DNA from: an uncultured archaeon
GTDB lineage: Archaea; Asgardarchaeota; Jordiarchaeia; Jordiarchaeales; Jordiarchaeaceae
DNA: 7,951 nucleotides
Assembly (NCBI GenBank): GCA_964510585.1
Contig: CAZECW010000153.1
Location: 1 to 7,951, forward strand
Reading direction: 5' to 3'
Shown: positions 1 through 7,792 of the stretch, in pieces
Numbering within the stretch: position 1 is the stretch's first letter
Layout: the number at the start of each line of letters is the position of its first letter
The notes under the pieces: model-generated
Seen by the model: the letters and a program-made list of their open reading frames with translations, nothing else
What the model was told of the DNA's origin: nothing
The model's database searches: none
Translations under genes and position numbers: made by a program

Positions 1-139
1 CAGCCCCCATGAGGGTGCCAACATAGACGCCGTTCCCTTTGAGGGAAGGGCGTGTTAACTGGGTGATGGCACACCCATTGCTTCGAAGGCGATGAGCCAG
101 AAGCAAGAATCTCCCGACTTTAGTCGCGGAGAGTGTCAA
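1..139 (+). mobile_element. Right end of an IS200/IS605-family element (IS608-like RE); element continues left of the window
   Basis: GAAT (107-110) sits at the foot of the imperfect hairpin CTCC-CGAC-TTTA-GTCG-c-GGAG (111-131), followed by AGTG and TCAA (136-139). This matches the IS608 right-end layout of guide GAAT, subterminal hairpin with TTTA loop, and cleavage site TCAA. GGT-like coding sequence on the minus strand stops at this boundary. No tnpA/tnpB is visible in the window. Confidence 0.88.
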
Positions 140-155
140 AAGGTTCTCCTCTCTC
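1..155 (+). ncRNA. Candidate TnpB omegaRNA (reRNA): 3' part of the scaffold plus a flank-derived guide of about 16 nt
   Basis: Dense GC-rich stems: ACGCC-g-TTCCCT-ttg-AGGGAA-g-GGCGT (27-53), GTGCCA/TGGCAC (15-20/67-72), CATTGCTT/AGGCGATG (76-94) and the RE hairpin (110-132). In IS200/IS605 elements the omegaRNA comes from the right end and the guide from the adjacent flank (here AAGGTTCTCCTCTCTC, 140-155). The 5' end and the presence of tnpB cannot be seen. Confidence 0.55.
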
Positions 156-1151
156 ATATTTTATGTTTTCTCTGAGCTGTGAAGCGTACTCTTTTGAAAG
201 TAGTTTATCTAATGGTATCTCTACAAATTCTGGGTCTGTCACATATTGATCTCTCACTTTGAAGGCACACTTTTTAGCCTCAACCATCAAGTGTATGGTT
301 TCAGGCTTCTGCCATCCATATTGGGATAGTTCGAAACCCTCGATTATGTTAAGTTCGATGAGTGTGGTAACTCCCTGTGAATTTGGGGGAAACGCATAAA
401 CCTCATAGCTTCTGTAGTGTGTTTTTATGGGTTCCACCCAGTTAGACTTGTGGTCCTTTAAATCCTTCTTGGTGATTAGACCACCATTTTCCTCCGAAAA
501 TTTAACTATGGATTCGGCCAATTCCCCTTTATAGAATTCATCTCTGCCTCCCTCAGCCAACTTTCTTAATGTCGCTGCTAATTCCTTCTGTACTAGAACT
601 TCACGCGGTTTAATTATACGTCCTCCTCTTATGTACATCTCTGCCAACTTCGGGCTGGAAGTCAAAACATCGATATTTGAATTTATAAACCAGTAAAATT
701 TATCTGTTATGGGAGCACCTCTCTCAGCATATTCTATAGCTGGCTGAATCAATTCACTCAGCGTTTTTGTCCCAAACCTCTCAACTGCCGTGCACCAGCC
801 ATCAACAACTCCCGGAACTGTCACAGGAAGCATACCTCTCACGGGGATCGATGAGAAGCCCATGGATCTGAAGAGATTTCTCTTGGCAGCGTAGGTAGCC
901 CTACCACTGGCATTAAGTCCAAAAACTCTATCTTCACCCGCATCATATATGAGAAGGAACGCGTCTCCCCCTAACCCACACATATGTGGATAGACTACCG
1001 CCAAGACCATGTTTGTTGCTATTGCTGCATCAACGGCATTACCTCCCCCCTTAAGCACTTTTAATCCTTCGATTGAGGCCAATCTATGGGGGGAAACAAC
1101 CAACCCATTACGAGCCCTAGTTAAAGGATATACGGAAGGCATTATAATCAT
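120..1151 (-). pseudogene. ggt: Gamma-glutamyltransferase (Ntn-hydrolase, YwrD/archaeal type), truncated by IS insertion; encodes essentially the large subunit only
   Basis: Motifs GGNAVDAAIA, HMCGLGGDAF, NASGRA, VTVPGVVDGW, PAIEYAERG and FPPNSQG are present. Native sequence ends at P337 (nt 141-143). FDTLRD and the TAA stop (120-122) are read from the antisense IS end. The catalytic Thr and small subunit (about 190 aa) are absent. The start may be the ATG at 1142, with GGATGAT upstream. Confidence 0.88.
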
Positions 1152-1458: not shown

Positions 1459-2607
1459 TTGGCGGAATATCCAAAGCTCAAAGAAATCTACAACGAAATT
1501 ATACGCTGCTATCGCTGTGGACTTTGCAGGGTTTCTTGCCCCGTTTTCAAATATTCAGGAACGGAGTCATGGAATGCTAGGGGCCGACTAATTTTGCTCC
1601 GCGCCCTTACAGACAATAATGTAAATGTCTCGGACTCCCTTATTGAACGTATATATTCCTGTGCCCTGTGTAGGGAATGTGAAGTTTTTTGCCCGCCGGG
1701 TGTAAATGTGTCTGGCATAATAGAAGTAGCCAGGGAAGAGCTTGTAAAGAATGGTTTAGCTCCTCCCGAAGAGCAGAGAGAACTGCAGAAAAATATTCTC
1801 CAGGAGGGAAATATTCTAGGTAAAAGAACCCAACCCTTAAACACACTCCTAGGACCAATCATTGATAGCCTCCCCGACTCGTCACCCAATCTGGTGTATT
1901 CTGGTTGTGTCTTGTTATACTCCTACCCGCAAATTGCTCAGACTACGCTGGGAAATATTCAAAACGCCAAGTATGATTTCACCGTGATGAAAGAGGGGGA
2001 GAAGTGTTGTGGTGGATTTCTCAAAATGATAGGTTATAAGGAGGATTTCGACTCTTATAGCCAGAAACAATTGGAACTGCTAACCGAGAAGGAGATTGAC
2101 CAATTAATTACTATTTGTCCCATGTGCTACTCGACTTTCAAACATGACTATCCCCAAAAGTTAGAAGTTAAGCACACAGTCCTTCTTTACAATGAGTTGC
2201 TAGATGAGGGAAAAATAGTTTTTAACAGATCACTGGATGCTAAAGTTGCGTTTCACGACTCCTGTCACCTTGGCCGCTATTCGGGAATCTTCGAGCAGCC
2301 AAGAAAACTAATTGAAAATGTTCCTGGAATCAAATTAGTTGAACTATCTAAATCTAAAAAATCTTCAAACTGTTGTGGTGGAACAATAAGAGTTCCCTAC
2401 GCTCAGATTAGGAGCAAAATGTCTGAATGGATAATAGAAGACGCTTCACAAGCAGGGGCGGAATACTTGGTGACCGCTTGTCCCTCCTGTTTCCACAACT
2501 TATACTCTTCCTCCATCATGATGGATTGCAAAGTAAAAATCATTACCCTAGAAGAATTGGTGGGCTGTGCAACTGGACAACTGCCAAAAATACCCTTATA
2601 TAAATAA
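1459..2607 (+). CDS. (Fe-S)-binding oxidoreductase subunit, GlpC/HdrD-like (4Fe-4S dicluster plus two CCG domains), 382 aa
   Basis: CYRCGLCRVSCP and CALCRECEVFCP; CCG domain 1 has YSGC, EKCCGG and TICPMC; CCG domain 2 has FHDSCHLGR, NCCGG and TACPSC. TTG start with GGAGG at 1444-1448. Confidence 0.93.
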   Translation: MAEYPKLKEIYNEIIRCYRCGLCRVSCPVFKYSGTESWNARGRLILLRALTDNNVNVSDSLIERIYSCALCRECEVFCPPGVNVSGIIEVAREELVKNGLAPPEEQRELQKNILQEGNILGKRTQPLNTLLGPIIDSLPDSSPNLVYSGCVLLYSYPQIAQTTLGNIQNAKYDFTVMKEGEKCCGGFLKMIGYKEDFDSYSQKQLELLTEKEIDQLITICPMCYSTFKHDYPQKLEVKHTVLLYNELLDEGKIVFNRSLDAKVAFHDSCHLGRYSGIFEQPRKLIENVPGIKLVELSKSKKSSNCCGGTIRVPYAQIRSKMSEWIIEDASQAGAEYLVTACPSCFHNLYSSSIMMDCKVKIITLEELVGCATGQLPKIPLYK

Positions 2608-2749
2608 ACGGATACACTAAAGGATTTCTCCGGTGTAAGTAAGTTTTCTTAAAATTAGAAATTAATTAATTATGTGATAACTATTATTTCAGGGTAAAAC
2701 TTAATATGTCTCCTTGCGTTTCAAAAACATGCTTGTGGAGGACAATGTT

Positions 2750-3532
2750 ATGTCAGAAATTGAACCAAGGGTTATGCACAGTCAAGATATTAGAAAATTC
2801 AAAATTGGTAGAGGTTTTAGTCTTGGAGAAATAAGCGGCGCTGGACTGAGCGTGCACGAGGCTAAAAGACTCTCACTTAGAATAGATCGGCGAAGAAAAA
2901 CAACACATGAATTCAACATAGACGCTATCAAGACCTACATAAAAGAAAAGAAGAAAAAATTGGAAGAGAAAAAAGCAGAAGAGACAAAAAAGTTGTCCTT
3001 AGAAGAAGCCGAGAAACGGGCAATCTCCGAGTTAACGAAAATAGAAGGGCTAAACAAAAAGCTGGCTCAAAAACTCTTCCAGAACAAAATAGACTCACTA
3101 GAAGCCTTATCAAGTGCGAAGGCTAAAGACTTGGCCAAAAAAGTTGGAGTAAGTGAAACAAGAGCACAACTTTGGATTGAGGACGCCCAAGTGCTTACTG
3201 GAAAAATTAAACCCGAAAAGCCAGAGGAAGTAAAGGAGGAAGCCAAAGAAAAAGCTGTAGAAGAAATTCCAGAGATAGAATCCGTAGACCTCACAAAAAT
3301 TAAAGGCTTAACAAACCAGGAAGCCAAGAAACTAGCAGAGATAGGCATTCTCACACTGGAGGATCTAGCTTTAACTGAAGAGGAAGAAATAGAAGAAATA
3401 ACTAAAATAACTAAAATCCCCCAAGACACCATCAAGGACTGGATTAAGGAAGCAAAAGGGCTTATTGAAAAATCCAAGGAAACTGCCAAACCCAAAAAGA
3501 GAGCCAAGGCAAAAACAAAGAAGAAGACATAG
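2750..3532 (+). CDS. rpl13e: Ribosomal protein eL13 (L13e) N-terminal domain fused to two tandem helix-hairpin-helix (DUF4332/HHH_5-like) domains and a Lys-rich tail, 260 aa
   Basis: L13e signature GRGFSLGEI..AGLS..EAKRL.L.ID.RRKT.HEFNI (about 2750-2947). Repeats LTKIEGL...L...I.SLEAL...WIEDA (about 3026-3196) and LTKIKGL...L...I.TLEDL...WIKEA (about 3284-3463). The ATG at 2750 is preferred over the TTG at 2714 because GGAGG (2737-2741) lies 8 nt upstream. Confidence 0.88.
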   Translation: MSEIEPRVMHSQDIRKFKIGRGFSLGEISGAGLSVHEAKRLSLRIDRRRKTTHEFNIDAIKTYIKEKKKKLEEKKAEETKKLSLEEAEKRAISELTKIEGLNKKLAQKLFQNKIDSLEALSSAKAKDLAKKVGVSETRAQLWIEDAQVLTGKIKPEKPEEVKEEAKEKAVEEIPEIESVDLTKIKGLTNQEAKKLAEIGILTLEDLALTEEEEIEEITKITKIPQDTIKDWIKEAKGLIEKSKETAKPKKRAKAKTKKKT

Positions 3533-3575: not shown

Positions 3576-5996
3576 CTAAGTGAAAAATCTTTTCACTATT
3601 TTTCTCCTCAGGTGATATTCTAGCTGAGCAAAATTTGTGGCTTCACTTAGAGGCTCTACTCCCTCTAATTTAATTATTATTTTGTCCTGGGCGTCAATTT
3701 TTATTTCATTTTCCTTCCCGTGAATATAGTTGACAAGAAGTGTCTTGTTTTCTTCGTCCCAAGTTGAGGGGGCCGAGACACTTTTCGGTTTTTTTGGTAG
3801 TGTTAGGGAAATAAGTCCTGGGCTGTTCTTGTAGCCCCAACACTCTATTTCAATATAGGATTCGTTTTTCTTAAATTTGGAAATTTCTGAAGTGATATAG
3901 TTAATTTTTGAATCTCCTAACTTTAGTCCTAAAGTCCAGATTATGGCGCTTCTCCTTGGAACAAGGCAGTCCTTTACTAATACCTTTTGGTTCAAGTCTT
4001 GGGGTGAGCTGAAAGTTATGTCACACTTCTTGTCTCTCCACTCCAAATTACACACAAGCAGGTAACCCACATCACTTCCTGCTCTCTCGCATAGCAAAAC
4101 TTTGTCCGAAGAAAAACAGTGCCTTGTGGTTAAACCCACTTTTTCCAGTACAGAAGGTAAACTTTCAGCGCCCGGCAAAAACCCTAATTGTACCACCGAG
4201 CCTTTTCCATAATTAATTCTAAAACCACAAATTTTCCCATCAAAGAGGAATAAAGGTTCTACATTTTCGACATCAAAGGTTACAACAATTGGAGACTTGA
4301 ACTTTAATCCGCCGCAATTGACACACTTCTCCTTGTATATTTCTTGTTTTCTGACTCTGAGAAAGTCCTTCATTAGCTTTAAACTTTCAAAGTTCTCGTC
4401 TAGTTCTGGGACACACGGGAAGATGAGGAGAAATCCGCCCCTCCTTACATACTCTTCCAGCTTCTCAACTATGCTTCTCTCCATAAAGTTAAAGCTAAAA
4501 ACGAGGAGAACATGGTTCTGGACAAGTTTCTGAATAGGAAGTTGTCTGAGGTCTAGAAACTCAAAGTTAAATCCCGCCTCCAAAATTGCACCCATAAATT
4601 TATCCATTAATATGCTCAGCGTTCTGTATTCTAGGAAGGTGCCAGTTTTTGCGTTTACAAGTCTTGCATAGGTGTAGGGGTGGTAGTAACCTAAACTTAG
4701 CTCTGCCAGTTTACTAGTTGCTTTTTTAGAAGAATCTACGAAATCCACAAATCTTTTAACAACAGAATATTTACTGGTTTCCTCCCCTTTTTCGTCCAAA
4801 GGCGCGTCGTGGTAGTAGATTTTACTAGTAGTTCCATGATTCTGGGGGTTAATTCCTCCTGAAAACATGTAGAAGTTAAAGCCCTTTAACCCGTGAATAT
4901 AGGCTATGCGTTCCAAAAAGTGTACCATGTTGTCTGGGACCCTTGAAGCAAACCATCCCGCCTGCAATTCCAAGCTCAAAGGTGCACAGCCTACCTGTTC
5001 CGCCTTCAAGCGTTCAACGTTATTAACAATCTCGGTGAAGGACTCCAAATCTTGGATTAGCTGAGGATACAAATCAATAGTGTCATATACCACTTTACTC
5101 TTCTTGGATATGCTTGCGGGTGGAAGAATGGTGTAAGGCTCATTGGTATATAGAGGGACATTGACTCCTTTACTCCTCAGCACACCTGCAATTTCTCTGA
5201 GGAAAATAGCAACCATATCCTCCTTGAATTCCACCCAATCAAAAATCCAGGGTAAAGCATGCCTATCTTTAACCATTCTTCTTGGAGGTTCAACCACCCA
5301 AAAGGAATCAAAACTTGAGCGGTATCTCTTATTCAAATCTTTAATTGACTTGTACTTCTCCCTAAGCCACTTCTGATAAAGTCCTTCTCCATTTTCCCCA
5401 CCAATTACAATATTGTTGTAGTCCGTGTCAAAGGGCTGGAAATGGAAACCATAAGAAGCTTCATTATCAATCTGAACAAGAACCACGCTTCCGCCTGCAG
5501 TGTACTGGTGCCTTGCAATTATGGAACCCACATTTTCAATCCATTCTTTAGCTTGATTCAGGTAGATGGGGTGGAGATATGTTATTACCGGAGCCTTTTT
5601 AGAAAACCAGAAGGTAGGTTTTCCCCTAGAGTTACGCGCCAAAATTTCGGGAAACCTTCTAATCAACCAGTCTGGTATGCCTCCCCACCTCCATTCTGCG
5701 CAAATATAAGGTCCAGGCTTCGCCAACACTCCCAATTCTTCTTCACGAGCATATTCCAGAAATGTTTCAAGGTCACGCTCCTCAACTGTTTCGCCTTGAA
5801 AGTCGAATACGCCGGGGCGCACTTCATGCCAATTCCATGGAATGTAAGTGGACACCGCACCTAGGTGGGCTTTTTTCAACTTTGAAAGCCTTTTCCGCCA
5901 TTCCTTTTTAGCAACACGAAAATAGTGAATTTCTCCACTCAACAAGAATTTTCCTTCATTAAGGTCAAATATTTTAGATGGTGAAAATGTTTCCAT
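3576..5996 (-). CDS. Glycoside hydrolase family 35, GlmA-like architecture (beta-galactosidase / exo-beta-glucosaminidase related), 806 aa
   Basis: GH35 motifs SGEIHYFR, YIPWNWHE, KPGPYICAEW..GG.PDWL; acid/base QIDNE (E179, nt 5460-5462); nucleophile SLELQAGWF (E343, nt 4968-4970). Downstream GH42-like trimerisation segment LEEYVRRGGFLLI. PVITYLHP, FQPFDTDYN and FSGGINP recall Thermococcus GlmA. No signal peptide seen. Confidence 0.9.
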   Translation of the reverse strand: METFSPSKIFDLNEGKFLLSGEIHYFRVAKKEWRKRLSKLKKAHLGAVSTYIPWNWHEVRPGVFDFQGETVEERDLETFLEYAREEELGVLAKPGPYICAEWRWGGIPDWLIRRFPEILARNSRGKPTFWFSKKAPVITYLHPIYLNQAKEWIENVGSIIARHQYTAGGSVVLVQIDNEASYGFHFQPFDTDYNNIVIGGENGEGLYQKWLREKYKSIKDLNKRYRSSFDSFWVVEPPRRMVKDRHALPWIFDWVEFKEDMVAIFLREIAGVLRSKGVNVPLYTNEPYTILPPASISKKSKVVYDTIDLYPQLIQDLESFTEIVNNVERLKAEQVGCAPLSLELQAGWFASRVPDNMVHFLERIAYIHGLKGFNFYMFSGGINPQNHGTTSKIYYHDAPLDEKGEETSKYSVVKRFVDFVDSSKKATSKLAELSLGYYHPYTYARLVNAKTGTFLEYRTLSILMDKFMGAILEAGFNFEFLDLRQLPIQKLVQNHVLLVFSFNFMERSIVEKLEEYVRRGGFLLIFPCVPELDENFESLKLMKDFLRVRKQEIYKEKCVNCGGLKFKSPIVVTFDVENVEPLFLFDGKICGFRINYGKGSVVQLGFLPGAESLPSVLEKVGLTTRHCFSSDKVLLCERAGSDVGYLLVCNLEWRDKKCDITFSSPQDLNQKVLVKDCLVPRRSAIIWTLGLKLGDSKINYITSEISKFKKNESYIEIECWGYKNSPGLISLTLPKKPKSVSAPSTWDEENKTLLVNYIHGKENEIKIDAQDKIIIKLEGVEPLSEATNFAQLEYHLRRKIVKRFFT

Positions 5997-6042: not shown

Positions 6043-6072
6043 ACAATAATATGAATTATGGAGAAATGGGCA

Positions 6073-6300
6073 ATGGCAATTATCGCTTATATAATGTTGC
6101 TAACCGCGGTGGGCAAGGAGCACGAAGTAGCGGAAACCGTTTCCAAATACGATCATGTCACCGAGGCTAAAGTTGTTTATGGAAGCTGGGATGTGGTGGT
6201 TCGCGCCTCCCTAGACGACCTGGCACAGTTGGATGTTCTAGTAACAAAAATAAGGAAACTGGAGGGCGTTGAACAAACCTCAACACTGGTATCCTCCTAA
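6073..6300 (+). CDS. Stand-alone Lrp/AsnC ligand-binding (RAM) domain protein, about 75 aa
   Basis: AYIML.T.VGKEHEV...V......V.EAKVVYGSWDVVV......LAQLD..V.KIRKLEGVEQTSTLV is typical of archaeal demi-FFRP proteins; no HTH. The ATG at 6073 is preferred over 6058 because of GGAG at 6060-6063 and the TATA spacing. Confidence 0.9.
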   Translation: MAIIAYIMLLTAVGKEHEVAETVSKYDHVTEAKVVYGSWDVVVRASLDDLAQLDVLVTKIRKLEGVEQTSTLVSS

Positions 6301-6925: not shown

Positions 6926-7792
6926 TTGGCAGAACAAGAAAACCAAACCAATAAAGTAATAGAAGAAAAAATTAAACCAATGATAGAAAAAATGGCGCAA
7001 AAAAAGAAAGTCAAAGAAAAAATGGCCAATGTAAAACACAAAATCATAATTATGTCCGGAAAGGGGGGAGTTGGAAAAAGCATGGTAACAGCCAACCTAG
7101 CAACAGCCCTAGCAATGAAAGGCAGAAAAGTGGGGGTCTTGGACTCCGACATACACGGGCCCTCAATACCCAAAATACTGGGAATAAGGGGAGAAAAACC
7201 CAAAGCTACAGAAACCGGCATAAAACCAGTAACCACACCACAGGGAGTAAAAGTCATTTCCATGGATCTCTTAATGGGTGATAGTGAAATGCCGCTCATA
7301 TGGCGTGGACCACTAAAAATGAAGGCCATAAGGCAACTCTTATCAGAAGTAGACTGGGAAGAACTAGACTACCTCCTCGTGGATTTACCGCCAGGCACCG
7401 GAGACGAACCCCTAAACATAATTCAACTCATACCCGAAATGGATGGAGCAATAATAATCACCGCCCCCTCCGACCTCTCCCAATACGTGGTCAGAAAAGC
7501 AGTCTCAATGGCCCGAAAAATGAACATCCCCATACTGGGAATAATAGAAAACATGAGCGGCTTCTTATGCCCCAAATGTGGAGAAAAACACGAAATCCTA
7601 GGTGTCGGAGGAGGGAGAAAAATAAGCGAAGAAATGAATCTAACACTTCTGGGCCAAATCCCAATAGACCCAAAAATTACAGAAAACACTGATCGTGGAA
7701 CACCCTTCATAGTAAAATGCCCTGAGTCACAAACAGCCAAAATATTTAATGAAATTGTACAAAAAATCCAAAAGACAGTAGAGGAAAAATAA
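6926..7792 (+). CDS. mrp: Mrp/NBP35 (ApbC) family P-loop ATPase, iron-sulfur cluster carrier, 288 aa
   Basis: SGKGGVGKS deviant Walker A, DSDIHGPSIP, WRGP, DYLLVDLPPGTGDE, ENMSGFLCPKCG (CxxC). TTG start with GGAGTGA at 6914-6920. Confidence 0.96.
   Translation: MAEQENQTNKVIEEKIKPMIEKMAQKKKVKEKMANVKHKIIIMSGKGGVGKSMVTANLATALAMKGRKVGVLDSDIHGPSIPKILGIRGEKPKATETGIKPVTTPQGVKVISMDLLMGDSEMPLIWRGPLKMKAIRQLLSEVDWEELDYLLVDLPPGTGDEPLNIIQLIPEMDGAIIITAPSDLSQYVVRKAVSMARKMNIPILGIIENMSGFLCPKCGEKHEILGVGGGRKISEEMNLTLLGQIPIDPKITENTDRGTPFIVKCPESQTAKIFNEIVQKIQKTVEEK

Follow-up and report, generated by a model that had tools for sequence, protein, structure and literature searches.

A two-module helix-hairpin-helix arm on the ribosomal protein eL13 of Asgard archaea and its putative role at the ribosome surface

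Is a reading frame that joins the ribosomal protein eL13 to two tandem helix-hairpin-helix (HhH) modules a genuine ribosomal gene, and what might the appended part do? The question is raised by contig CAZECW010000153.1 of a metagenome-assembled genome (MAG) of hot-spring source and 96% completeness; the whole contig, 7,951 bases long, is the window analysed here, and can be placed, via named genome contigs, in the Candidatus Jordarchaeia within the Asgard archaea. No known organisms stand closer to eukaryotes than the Asgard archaea, whose ribosomes have received little structural characterisation. A first-pass annotation of the window had proposed an eL13 core, a glutamate/lysine-rich linker, two related HhH modules with an acidic spacer between them and a basic tail, and all of these parts were recovered by Pfam, NCBIfam and AlphaFold2. 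We consider it slightly better than an even bet (a probability of roughly 0.55) that they would form a tethered arm at the solvent-facing side of the large ribosomal subunit, of which one part may bind nucleic acid and the other dock a partner.

The gene is one open frame on the plus strand that runs uninterrupted from the ATG at 2750 to the TAG at 3530–3532, and the annotation was right that neither stop nor frameshift separates its parts. The N-terminal residues MSEIEP are common to all close orthologues, whereas the orthologues do not share the in-frame ATG that lies further upstream, at 2729; the annotated start at 2750 is therefore right. In order, the product of 260 amino acids (aa) consists of the eL13 core, a long glutamate/lysine-rich helix, a basic (HhH)2 unit, a disordered linker rich in proline, glutamate and lysine, an acidic (HhH)2 unit and a lysine-rich tail (Table 1), each ‘HhH domain’ being here a two-hairpin (HhH)2 unit. 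The three Pfam families named in the first-pass reading are all matched above their cut-offs: Ribosomal_L13e (PF01294) on residues 15–108 (33.3 bits, cut-off 24.9); HHH_5 (PF14520) on two separate stretches (68.7 bits, cut-off 27; best residues 93–147), located by a genome scan at 3026–3190 and 3287–3457; and DUF4332 (PF14229) best on residues 186–235 (29.2 bits, cut-off 23.2), a partial match (model positions 2–53 of 122) that overlaps HHH_5. Customized Hidden Markov Models (HMMs) put the modules at residues 89–150 and 177–241. Judged by these profiles, the arm carries genuine HHH_5 modules. Among the NCBIfam models, PRK12277, the short crenarchaeal-type L13e, matches residues 11–70 (model positions 22–81 of 83) at 65.4 bits and so misses its equivalog cut-off of 96 bits; the model covers the core only, and our sequence diverges from that type. 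Residues 92–165 are matched by RadA N-terminal models and residues 157–242 by the C-terminal regions of PRK12278 (bL21) and PRK12311 (uS2); the haloarchaeal eL32 model (PRK12766) also matches the arm, with its N-terminal part. The NusA C-terminal repeat model TIGR01954 has its best stretch at residues 192–236, below its curated cut-off (43.1 versus 48.15 bits), and Pfam found no S1 or KH domains.

An AlphaFold2 model built from 24 homologues (mean predicted local distance difference test score (pLDDT) of 79) has short strands and helices in core residues 1–53, a single helix over residues 54–95, a helical module at 103–150 (pLDDT approximately 90) and a second at 181–245 (approximately 84), with disorder at 157–178 (pLDDT < 50) and in the tail at 244–260. 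The long helix is probably a rigid spacer. When compared with PDB structures using Foldseek, the top match of the whole model was NusA in the Escherichia coli transcription–translation coupling complex (8y5l_NA, E = 2.4e-4), followed by dozens of eukaryotic eL13 chains on the core (approximately 68–72 residues, root-mean-square deviation 2.1–3.3 Å). The nearest solved protein by sequence is Pyrobaculum calidifontis eL13 (PDB 9E6Q chain AH, 9e6q_AH; E = 1.6e-8).

By profile, by fold and by its single copy in the genome, the protein is an eL13, with only the narrow NCBIfam equivalog cut-off failed; a whole-genome profile scan returned this gene as the sole L13e match (36.7 bits). A scan of the same genome for HHH_5 gave 14 matches, of which the two weakest were left out and ten non-eL13 ORFs (open reading frames) were run through Pfam: besides eL13, HHH_5 occurs in three RadA/Rad51 paralogues, UvrC, XPF, Hef, PolX, eL32 and two membrane-type proteins. 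HhH domains are typical of DNA-repair proteins, and their presence on the RadA paralogues, UvrC, XPF/Hef and PolX of this genome would suit an extraribosomal role, in which an eL13-derived, paralogous nucleic-acid-binding protein is not a stoichiometric component of the ribosome. We regard this as very unlikely, because no other eL13 homologue is present in a genome of this completeness, the core is conserved as in ordinary eL13 and a single eL13 copy, in the fused form, is found in most sampled Asgard genomes.

Independent assemblies support the junctions. Two contigs from two other hot-spring studies, X4 (63.6 kb) and X5 (25.5 kb), carry the gene whole, with 17 substitutions and no frameshift. 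A third metagenome contig (X2) has an in-frame 9-nucleotide (nt) insertion behind position 3218, in the acidic linker, in agreement with the variable linker length among orthologues (26–40 aa). Thirteen further proteins of 62–98% identity, with source names Candidatus Freyarchaeota, Jordarchaeum and Freyarchaeum, have the same order of parts, and one orthologue is located on a 3.58-Mb contig. Mean pairwise identity over orthologues and the ratio of non-synonymous to synonymous substitution rates (dN/dS) from five DNA orthologues (Table 1) show that both HhH modules are under purifying selection and constrained like the ribosomal core. On these two measures we reject the reading of the modules as a junk appendage, and, given the independent assemblies that cross the junctions, the shared layout of the orthologues and the selection on the parts, we likewise reject an assembly chimera. 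More broadly, a chimera, a frameshift-joined gene pair or a mis-called ORF might be suspected on a short MAG contig, the more so as core and HhH part are divided by an in-frame TAA in one Loki-like genome; with junctions spanned independently, orthologues on contigs of up to 3.58 Mb and purifying selection on all parts, the probability of any such artefact is close to nil. In the Loki-like case (L023, G145:C127, minus strand) the TAA lies between an 82-aa eL13 core and a 65-aa HhH frame without its own start, and in other members of that genus the frame runs unbroken for 155–167 aa; the TAA may stem from an error in sequencing or from a recent nonsense mutation, or it may be read through.

The two modules differ in character. 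In 14 of 14 orthologues module 1 is basic (isoelectric point (pI) 9.4–9.9, net charge +3 to +7), module 2 is acidic (pI 4.2–4.7, net −5 to −10) and the tail, of 19–66 aa, is basic (net +4 to +26). In module 1, with hairpins G-L-N and G-V-S, the first glycine of each hairpin is retained in 14/14 orthologues and the second is not, whereas the hairpin glycines of module 2 are kept in only 3/14 and 6/14; single-module relatives have a canonical G-h-G hairpin (GLG or GVG). The best family matches differ likewise, module 1 going to the RadA N-terminal models and module 2 to the NusA C-terminal repeat model. The first-pass annotation had called the modules related, which stands, if weakly (13/28 identities within the protein, E = 2e-4), but they are, on charge and hairpin sequence, not equivalent. 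A tree of the approximately 60-aa modules, with support values unexamined, hints, too weakly for a claim, that in this lineage neither module arose by recent duplication of the other, whereas another family (f16, below) duplicated its own. Among 57 single-module proteins, a weak trend towards charge compensation between an acidic module and a basic linker lacked significance (Spearman −0.20, P = 0.13, with relatedness uncontrolled).

These likenesses also bear on a second role, in which the arm would bind DNA or RNA polymerase (RNAP) and, as a transcription–translation or nucleoid tether, keep ribosomes near transcribed genes; the first-pass annotation had leant towards this NusA-like reading in naming RNAP as a possible partner. 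The NusA of a coupling complex is the top fold match, the NusA repeat model matches module 2 and the RadA N-terminal models match module 1; the RadA N-terminal domain is one of the (HhH)2 domains known to bind double-stranded DNA. However, the NusA model falls below its cut-off, and the known partner of the second NusA acidic repeat (AR2) is the C-terminal domain of the bacterial alpha subunit, which archaeal RNAP is not known to have. We hold such a tether to be distinctly improbable.

For the spread of the fusion, 1.84 billion representatives were searched exhaustively with HMMER, with 421 hits; the proteins listed and closer homologues were classified with the customized HMMs. Among the matches listed, 138 proteins have an eL13 core, of which 80 carry at least one HhH module: 58 have none, 57 have one, 17 two, 1 three and 5 four. 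In the window's phylum, an eL13 match was obtained in 199 of 301 genomes scanned, with most open frames at 148–300 aa. When 51 eL13 loci were sorted by genome family, two modules were counted in the window's own family (f1) and in f12, f16 and f18, three in f28, four in f30, and one in the sister family (f2) and in f4, f6, f8, f9, f15 and f20; the Loki-like family f7 has one or none, and f3, f17, f23, f26, f27 and f29 have none. Two f27 proteins (L035 and L036, from G189 and G261) are 242-aa Asgard eL13 without HhH, in which Pfam L13e matches positions 24–168 and 46–168 of 180; by this extent they are eukaryote-like long forms. Three metagenomic giants of 2,280–3,115 aa (P0027, P0046 and P0122) carry 20–26 tandem HhH modules of the eL13-arm type (E down to 4.6e-22) and no eL13 core.

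A search of named contigs, which used a narrow core alignment and is biased to the exact GRGFSLGE motif, found eL13 without HhH on 20 contigs, mostly from Thermoproteota (Bathyarchaeia, Saccharolobus, Acidilobaceae, Desulfurococcaceae, Thaumarchaeota and Geothermarchaeota), with three unnamed archaea and two MAGs of the Asgard Odinarchaeota. In the Bathyarchaeota phylum group eL13 was found in 110 of 201 genomes, mostly at 70–110 aa; none of the 16 longest of these that were checked has HhH, most having a basic eukaryote-like extension as in P. calidifontis. Many Thermoproteota eL13 are 147–195 aa long, with a conserved basic RGR-rich C-terminal extension like that of the 9E6Q protein (L076–L086, L088–L090), so that the length of about 80 aa given earlier for crenarchaeal eL13 fits the short forms and not these longer ones, which also lack HhH. 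Within the samples searched, the eL13–HhH fusion looks like an Asgard feature, although many of its metagenomic relatives are without an assignment, the names of the cluster members conveying hardly any taxonomy. Its presumed novelty thus survives in part: the fusion is not rare, with one to four modules in most sampled Asgard families, and the proteins are already public with their Pfam architectures precomputed in databases; at the same time a full-text literature search (L13e/eL13 with HhH, Asgard, DUF4332) found no description of an eL13–HhH fusion, and the source annotation is just ‘ribosomal protein L13e’ throughout, bar one ‘flap endonuclease-like’. The sequences are public and the feature appears to be undescribed.

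In eL32, a second ribosomal protein of the genome, an acidic linker connects a normal core to an HHH_5 module at the C terminus. Over 73 residues this module shares 48% identity with module 2 of eL13 (E = 1e-10); with module 1 it shares 36%. All 10 genomes of the order that gave an eL32 match have the C-terminal eL32–HhH fusion. In family f7 the HhH modules of eL32 are N-terminal and number one to three, in frames of 264–390 aa (L140, L141, L143, L144, L145, L151 and L152); some of the genera concerned have an eL13 that consists of the core alone, at approximately 70 aa. The opposite is seen in family f12, whose eL13 has two modules and whose eL32 has none. Because f7, f12 and the window's order differ in where the modules sit, HhH modules decorate different solvent-side proteins of the large subunit in lineage-specific combinations.

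Two further HHH_5 proteins of the genome are of membrane type. One, of 103 aa, joins an N-terminal hydrophobic anchor to a very basic HHH_5 part; it was found in 8/10 other genomes of the order and not in two genomes of the same genus, one of them complete. A complex prediction of eL13 module 2 (residues 174–246) with the basic HhH part of this protein gave a score of 0.01 (mark 0.34), which speaks neither for nor against a contact. The other, a multi-pass membrane protein of 316 aa, has DUF4332/HHH_5 at its end. HHH_5 arrays are also fused to protein kinase, NuoC (Complex1_30kDa) and PA14 domains (P0083, P0103 and P0162).

In our preferred reading, that of a tethered solvent-side arm, the eL13 core would occupy the usual solvent-side site of eL13 and the remainder would be flexible. 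The yeast eL13 and eL32 are both early, solvent-side proteins of the large subunit (PMC9932298); it is on this and on general knowledge that the placement of eL13 on the subunit rests, since our literature search found no paper on archaeal eL13 placement and Armache 2013 is without mention of L13e. With approximately 60 Å for the 42-residue helix and up to approximately 100 Å for the 28-residue linker, the arm could reach well over 100 Å, and by these lengths module 2 and the tail could sweep a large volume. From their charge and retained glycines, module 1 and the tail may touch nucleic-acid backbone without sequence specificity, the target being the surface of ribosomal RNA (rRNA), messenger RNA (mRNA) or DNA. 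Module 2 would serve as a protein-docking or charge-regulating surface, as suggested by a charge, degenerate hairpins and best matches like those of the NusA acidic repeats, which are protein-docking units. As the eL32 module closely copies module 2, at least three such modules may be displayed per ribosome. In its mode of action the arm might be likened to the P-stalk C-terminal domains and the NusA AR repeats, which likewise recruit from a tether.

A structural role in cis has to be weighed beside the docking arm: by binding the rRNA of their own ribosome, the modules may aid early folding of the large subunit or, in the mature particle, hold surface helices or expansion segments in place, which in a hot-spring organism might lend thermal stability. 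The early binding and solvent-side position of the yeast eL13 and eL32 (PMC9932298) would fit, and large expansion segments are possible in Asgard rRNAs (PMC7594248). Module 1 and the tail are strongly basic, and module number varies by lineage, as expansion segments do. On the other side, module 2 and the linker, both of them acidic and by prediction flexible, are a poor fit to packing on rRNA. Nor is the HhH part of eL32 known to be ordered in the Haloarcula marismortui 50S crystal structures. We consider the structural role unlikely.

Several observations weigh against the docking arm as well. That it sits on the ribosome or binds a ligand at all is something we infer from sequence and model only. 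The NusA-repeat model is matched below its curated cut-off. Module 1 is without the canonical G-h-G hairpin. The single-module eL13 arms of other lineages span pI 4.1–10.3, so that no single ligand type is implied family-wide. Finally, HHH_5 is promiscuous (kinases, NuoC, PA14), and the domain alone therefore says little about function.

Taken at its widest, the pattern of HhH modules on eL13 (0–4 modules) and on eL32 (0–3), at one or the other end of the protein, might reflect a lineage-variable docking system of the ribosome surface that has so far gone unrecognised, a proposal that we offer as speculative and, on balance, rather doubtful. If true, such a system might tie Asgard ribosomes to DNA, RNAP, membranes or each other. 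Through a conserved and selected eL13 arm of two to four modules and a sister module on eL32, the back of the large subunit would gain mobile domains for nucleic-acid binding or protein docking, and the identity of the ligand would tell whether the spatial organisation of translation (on DNA, on membranes or in arrays) is unlike that of model archaea. The plain ‘L13e’ annotation hides this feature, which offers a testable target for cryo-electron microscopy, cryo-electron tomography and binding assays.

The genes around eL13 have non-translation functions, and the gene lies outside any ribosomal operon (Table 1). A gamma-glutamyltranspeptidase ORF at window positions 120–1151 (minus strand) covers only Pfam positions 2–312 of 512 and ends 120 nt short of the contig end; similar sequence resumes in another frame at window positions 1–157, which suggests a frameshift or contig-end error.

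Table 1 Features of the eL13 gene, its neighbours in the window and other HHH_5 proteins of the genome, with identity and selection values for the parts of eL13
Feature	Location	Strand	Mean identity	dN/dS	Remarks
GGAGG Shine–Dalgarno-like motif	2737..2741	+			8 nt 5′ of ATG; read from the sequence
Complete eL13-(HhH)2x2 gene	2750..3532	+			260 codons + TAG; Pfam/NCBIfam matches; spanned whole by contigs X4 and X5
eL13 core, residues 1–53	2750..2908	+	0.82	0.11	Family matches reach approximately residue 70; PF01294, PRK12277, 9e6q_AH, Foldseek
Long E/K-rich alpha-helix, residues 54–95	2909..3034	+	0.65		Single modelled helix, pLDDT approximately 90
HhH module 1, residues 96–150	3035..3199	+	0.81	0.04	Basic, pI 9.6, net +4; HHH_5, RadA N-terminal models
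P/E/K-rich disordered linker, residues 151–178	3200..3283	+	0.59		Net −3; low pLDDT
HhH module 2, residues 179–243	3284..3478	+	0.77	0.13	Acidic, pI 4.6, net −6; HHH_5, DUF4332, TIGR01954
Lys-rich basic tail, residues 244–260	3479..3529	+	0.61		Disordered in model; net +9 over last 19 residues
CCG/4Fe-4S oxidoreductase	window 1459-2607	+			Neighbour gene
GH35/GH42-like beta-galactosidase	window 3576-5996	−			Neighbour gene
Small Lrp/AsnC ligand-binding protein	window 6058-6300	+			Neighbour gene
Mrp/NUBPL-type P-loop ATPase	window 6926-7792	+			Neighbour gene
eL32 fusion, approximately 237 aa (P0176)	G000:C18, L099:1483-2196	−			Normal core, acidic linker, C-terminal HHH_5 module
Anchored HHH_5 protein, 103 aa	G000:C20, L095:1369-1677	+			N-terminal hydrophobic anchor, very basic HHH_5 (pI 9.9)
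Multi-pass membrane protein, 316 aa	G000:C53, L101:922-1869	+			Ends in DUF4332/HHH_5

How does this eL13 compare with known systems? Ordinary eL13 (PF01294), as in P. calidifontis and in eukaryotes, shares the same N-terminal core of approximately 70 residues with its GRGFS and IDRRR motifs. The sampled Thermoproteota proteins consist of this core at approximately 70–110 aa or extend to approximately 147–195 aa with the basic RGR-rich sequence, and eukaryotic eL13 has N- and C-terminal extensions, in neither case with HhH, whereas here the C-terminal two-thirds of the protein is a two-module HhH arm. The relatives with which the first-pass annotation had compared it (haloarchaeal eL32, the bL21 fusions and the NusA repeats) hold up in NCBIfam and fold matches. 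The long-form eL32 of Halobacteria (PRK12766; H. marismortui L32e, 1S72 chain Y) is likewise a solvent-side protein of the large subunit with an HHH_5-type module and an acidic linker; it has a single N-terminal module, unlike the two differentiated C-terminal modules and basic tail of our eL13, and unlike the window genome's own eL32, with its module at the C terminus. The bacterial bL21 and uS2 ‘unknown domain fusion’ families (PRK12278, PRK12311) have the same HHH_5/DUF4332-type module C-terminal on a ribosomal protein, but are bacterial, involve other ribosomal proteins and carry one module.

Outside the ribosome, the best fold match of the arm is to NusA AR1/AR2 (TIGR01954; 8Y5L, 2JZB), tandem acidic (HhH)2 docking units on flexible linkers. 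By its domain content the protein is not a NusA, even if its arm resembles the AR repeats: NusA N-terminal, S1 and KH domains are absent, the score is sub-cut-off and, of the two modules, the second alone is acidic. The alignment of module 1 to the RadA model covers model positions 4–77, and the module is basic, as for a DNA-backbone binder; unlike RadA/Rad51, the protein has no ATPase core and its context is that of a ribosomal protein. The closest precedents in principle are the N-terminal HhH of haloarchaeal eL32 and the bacterial bL21 and uS2 fusions, from which our case differs in the host protein, the two differentiated modules with their tail and the phylum-wide, copy-number-variable spread.

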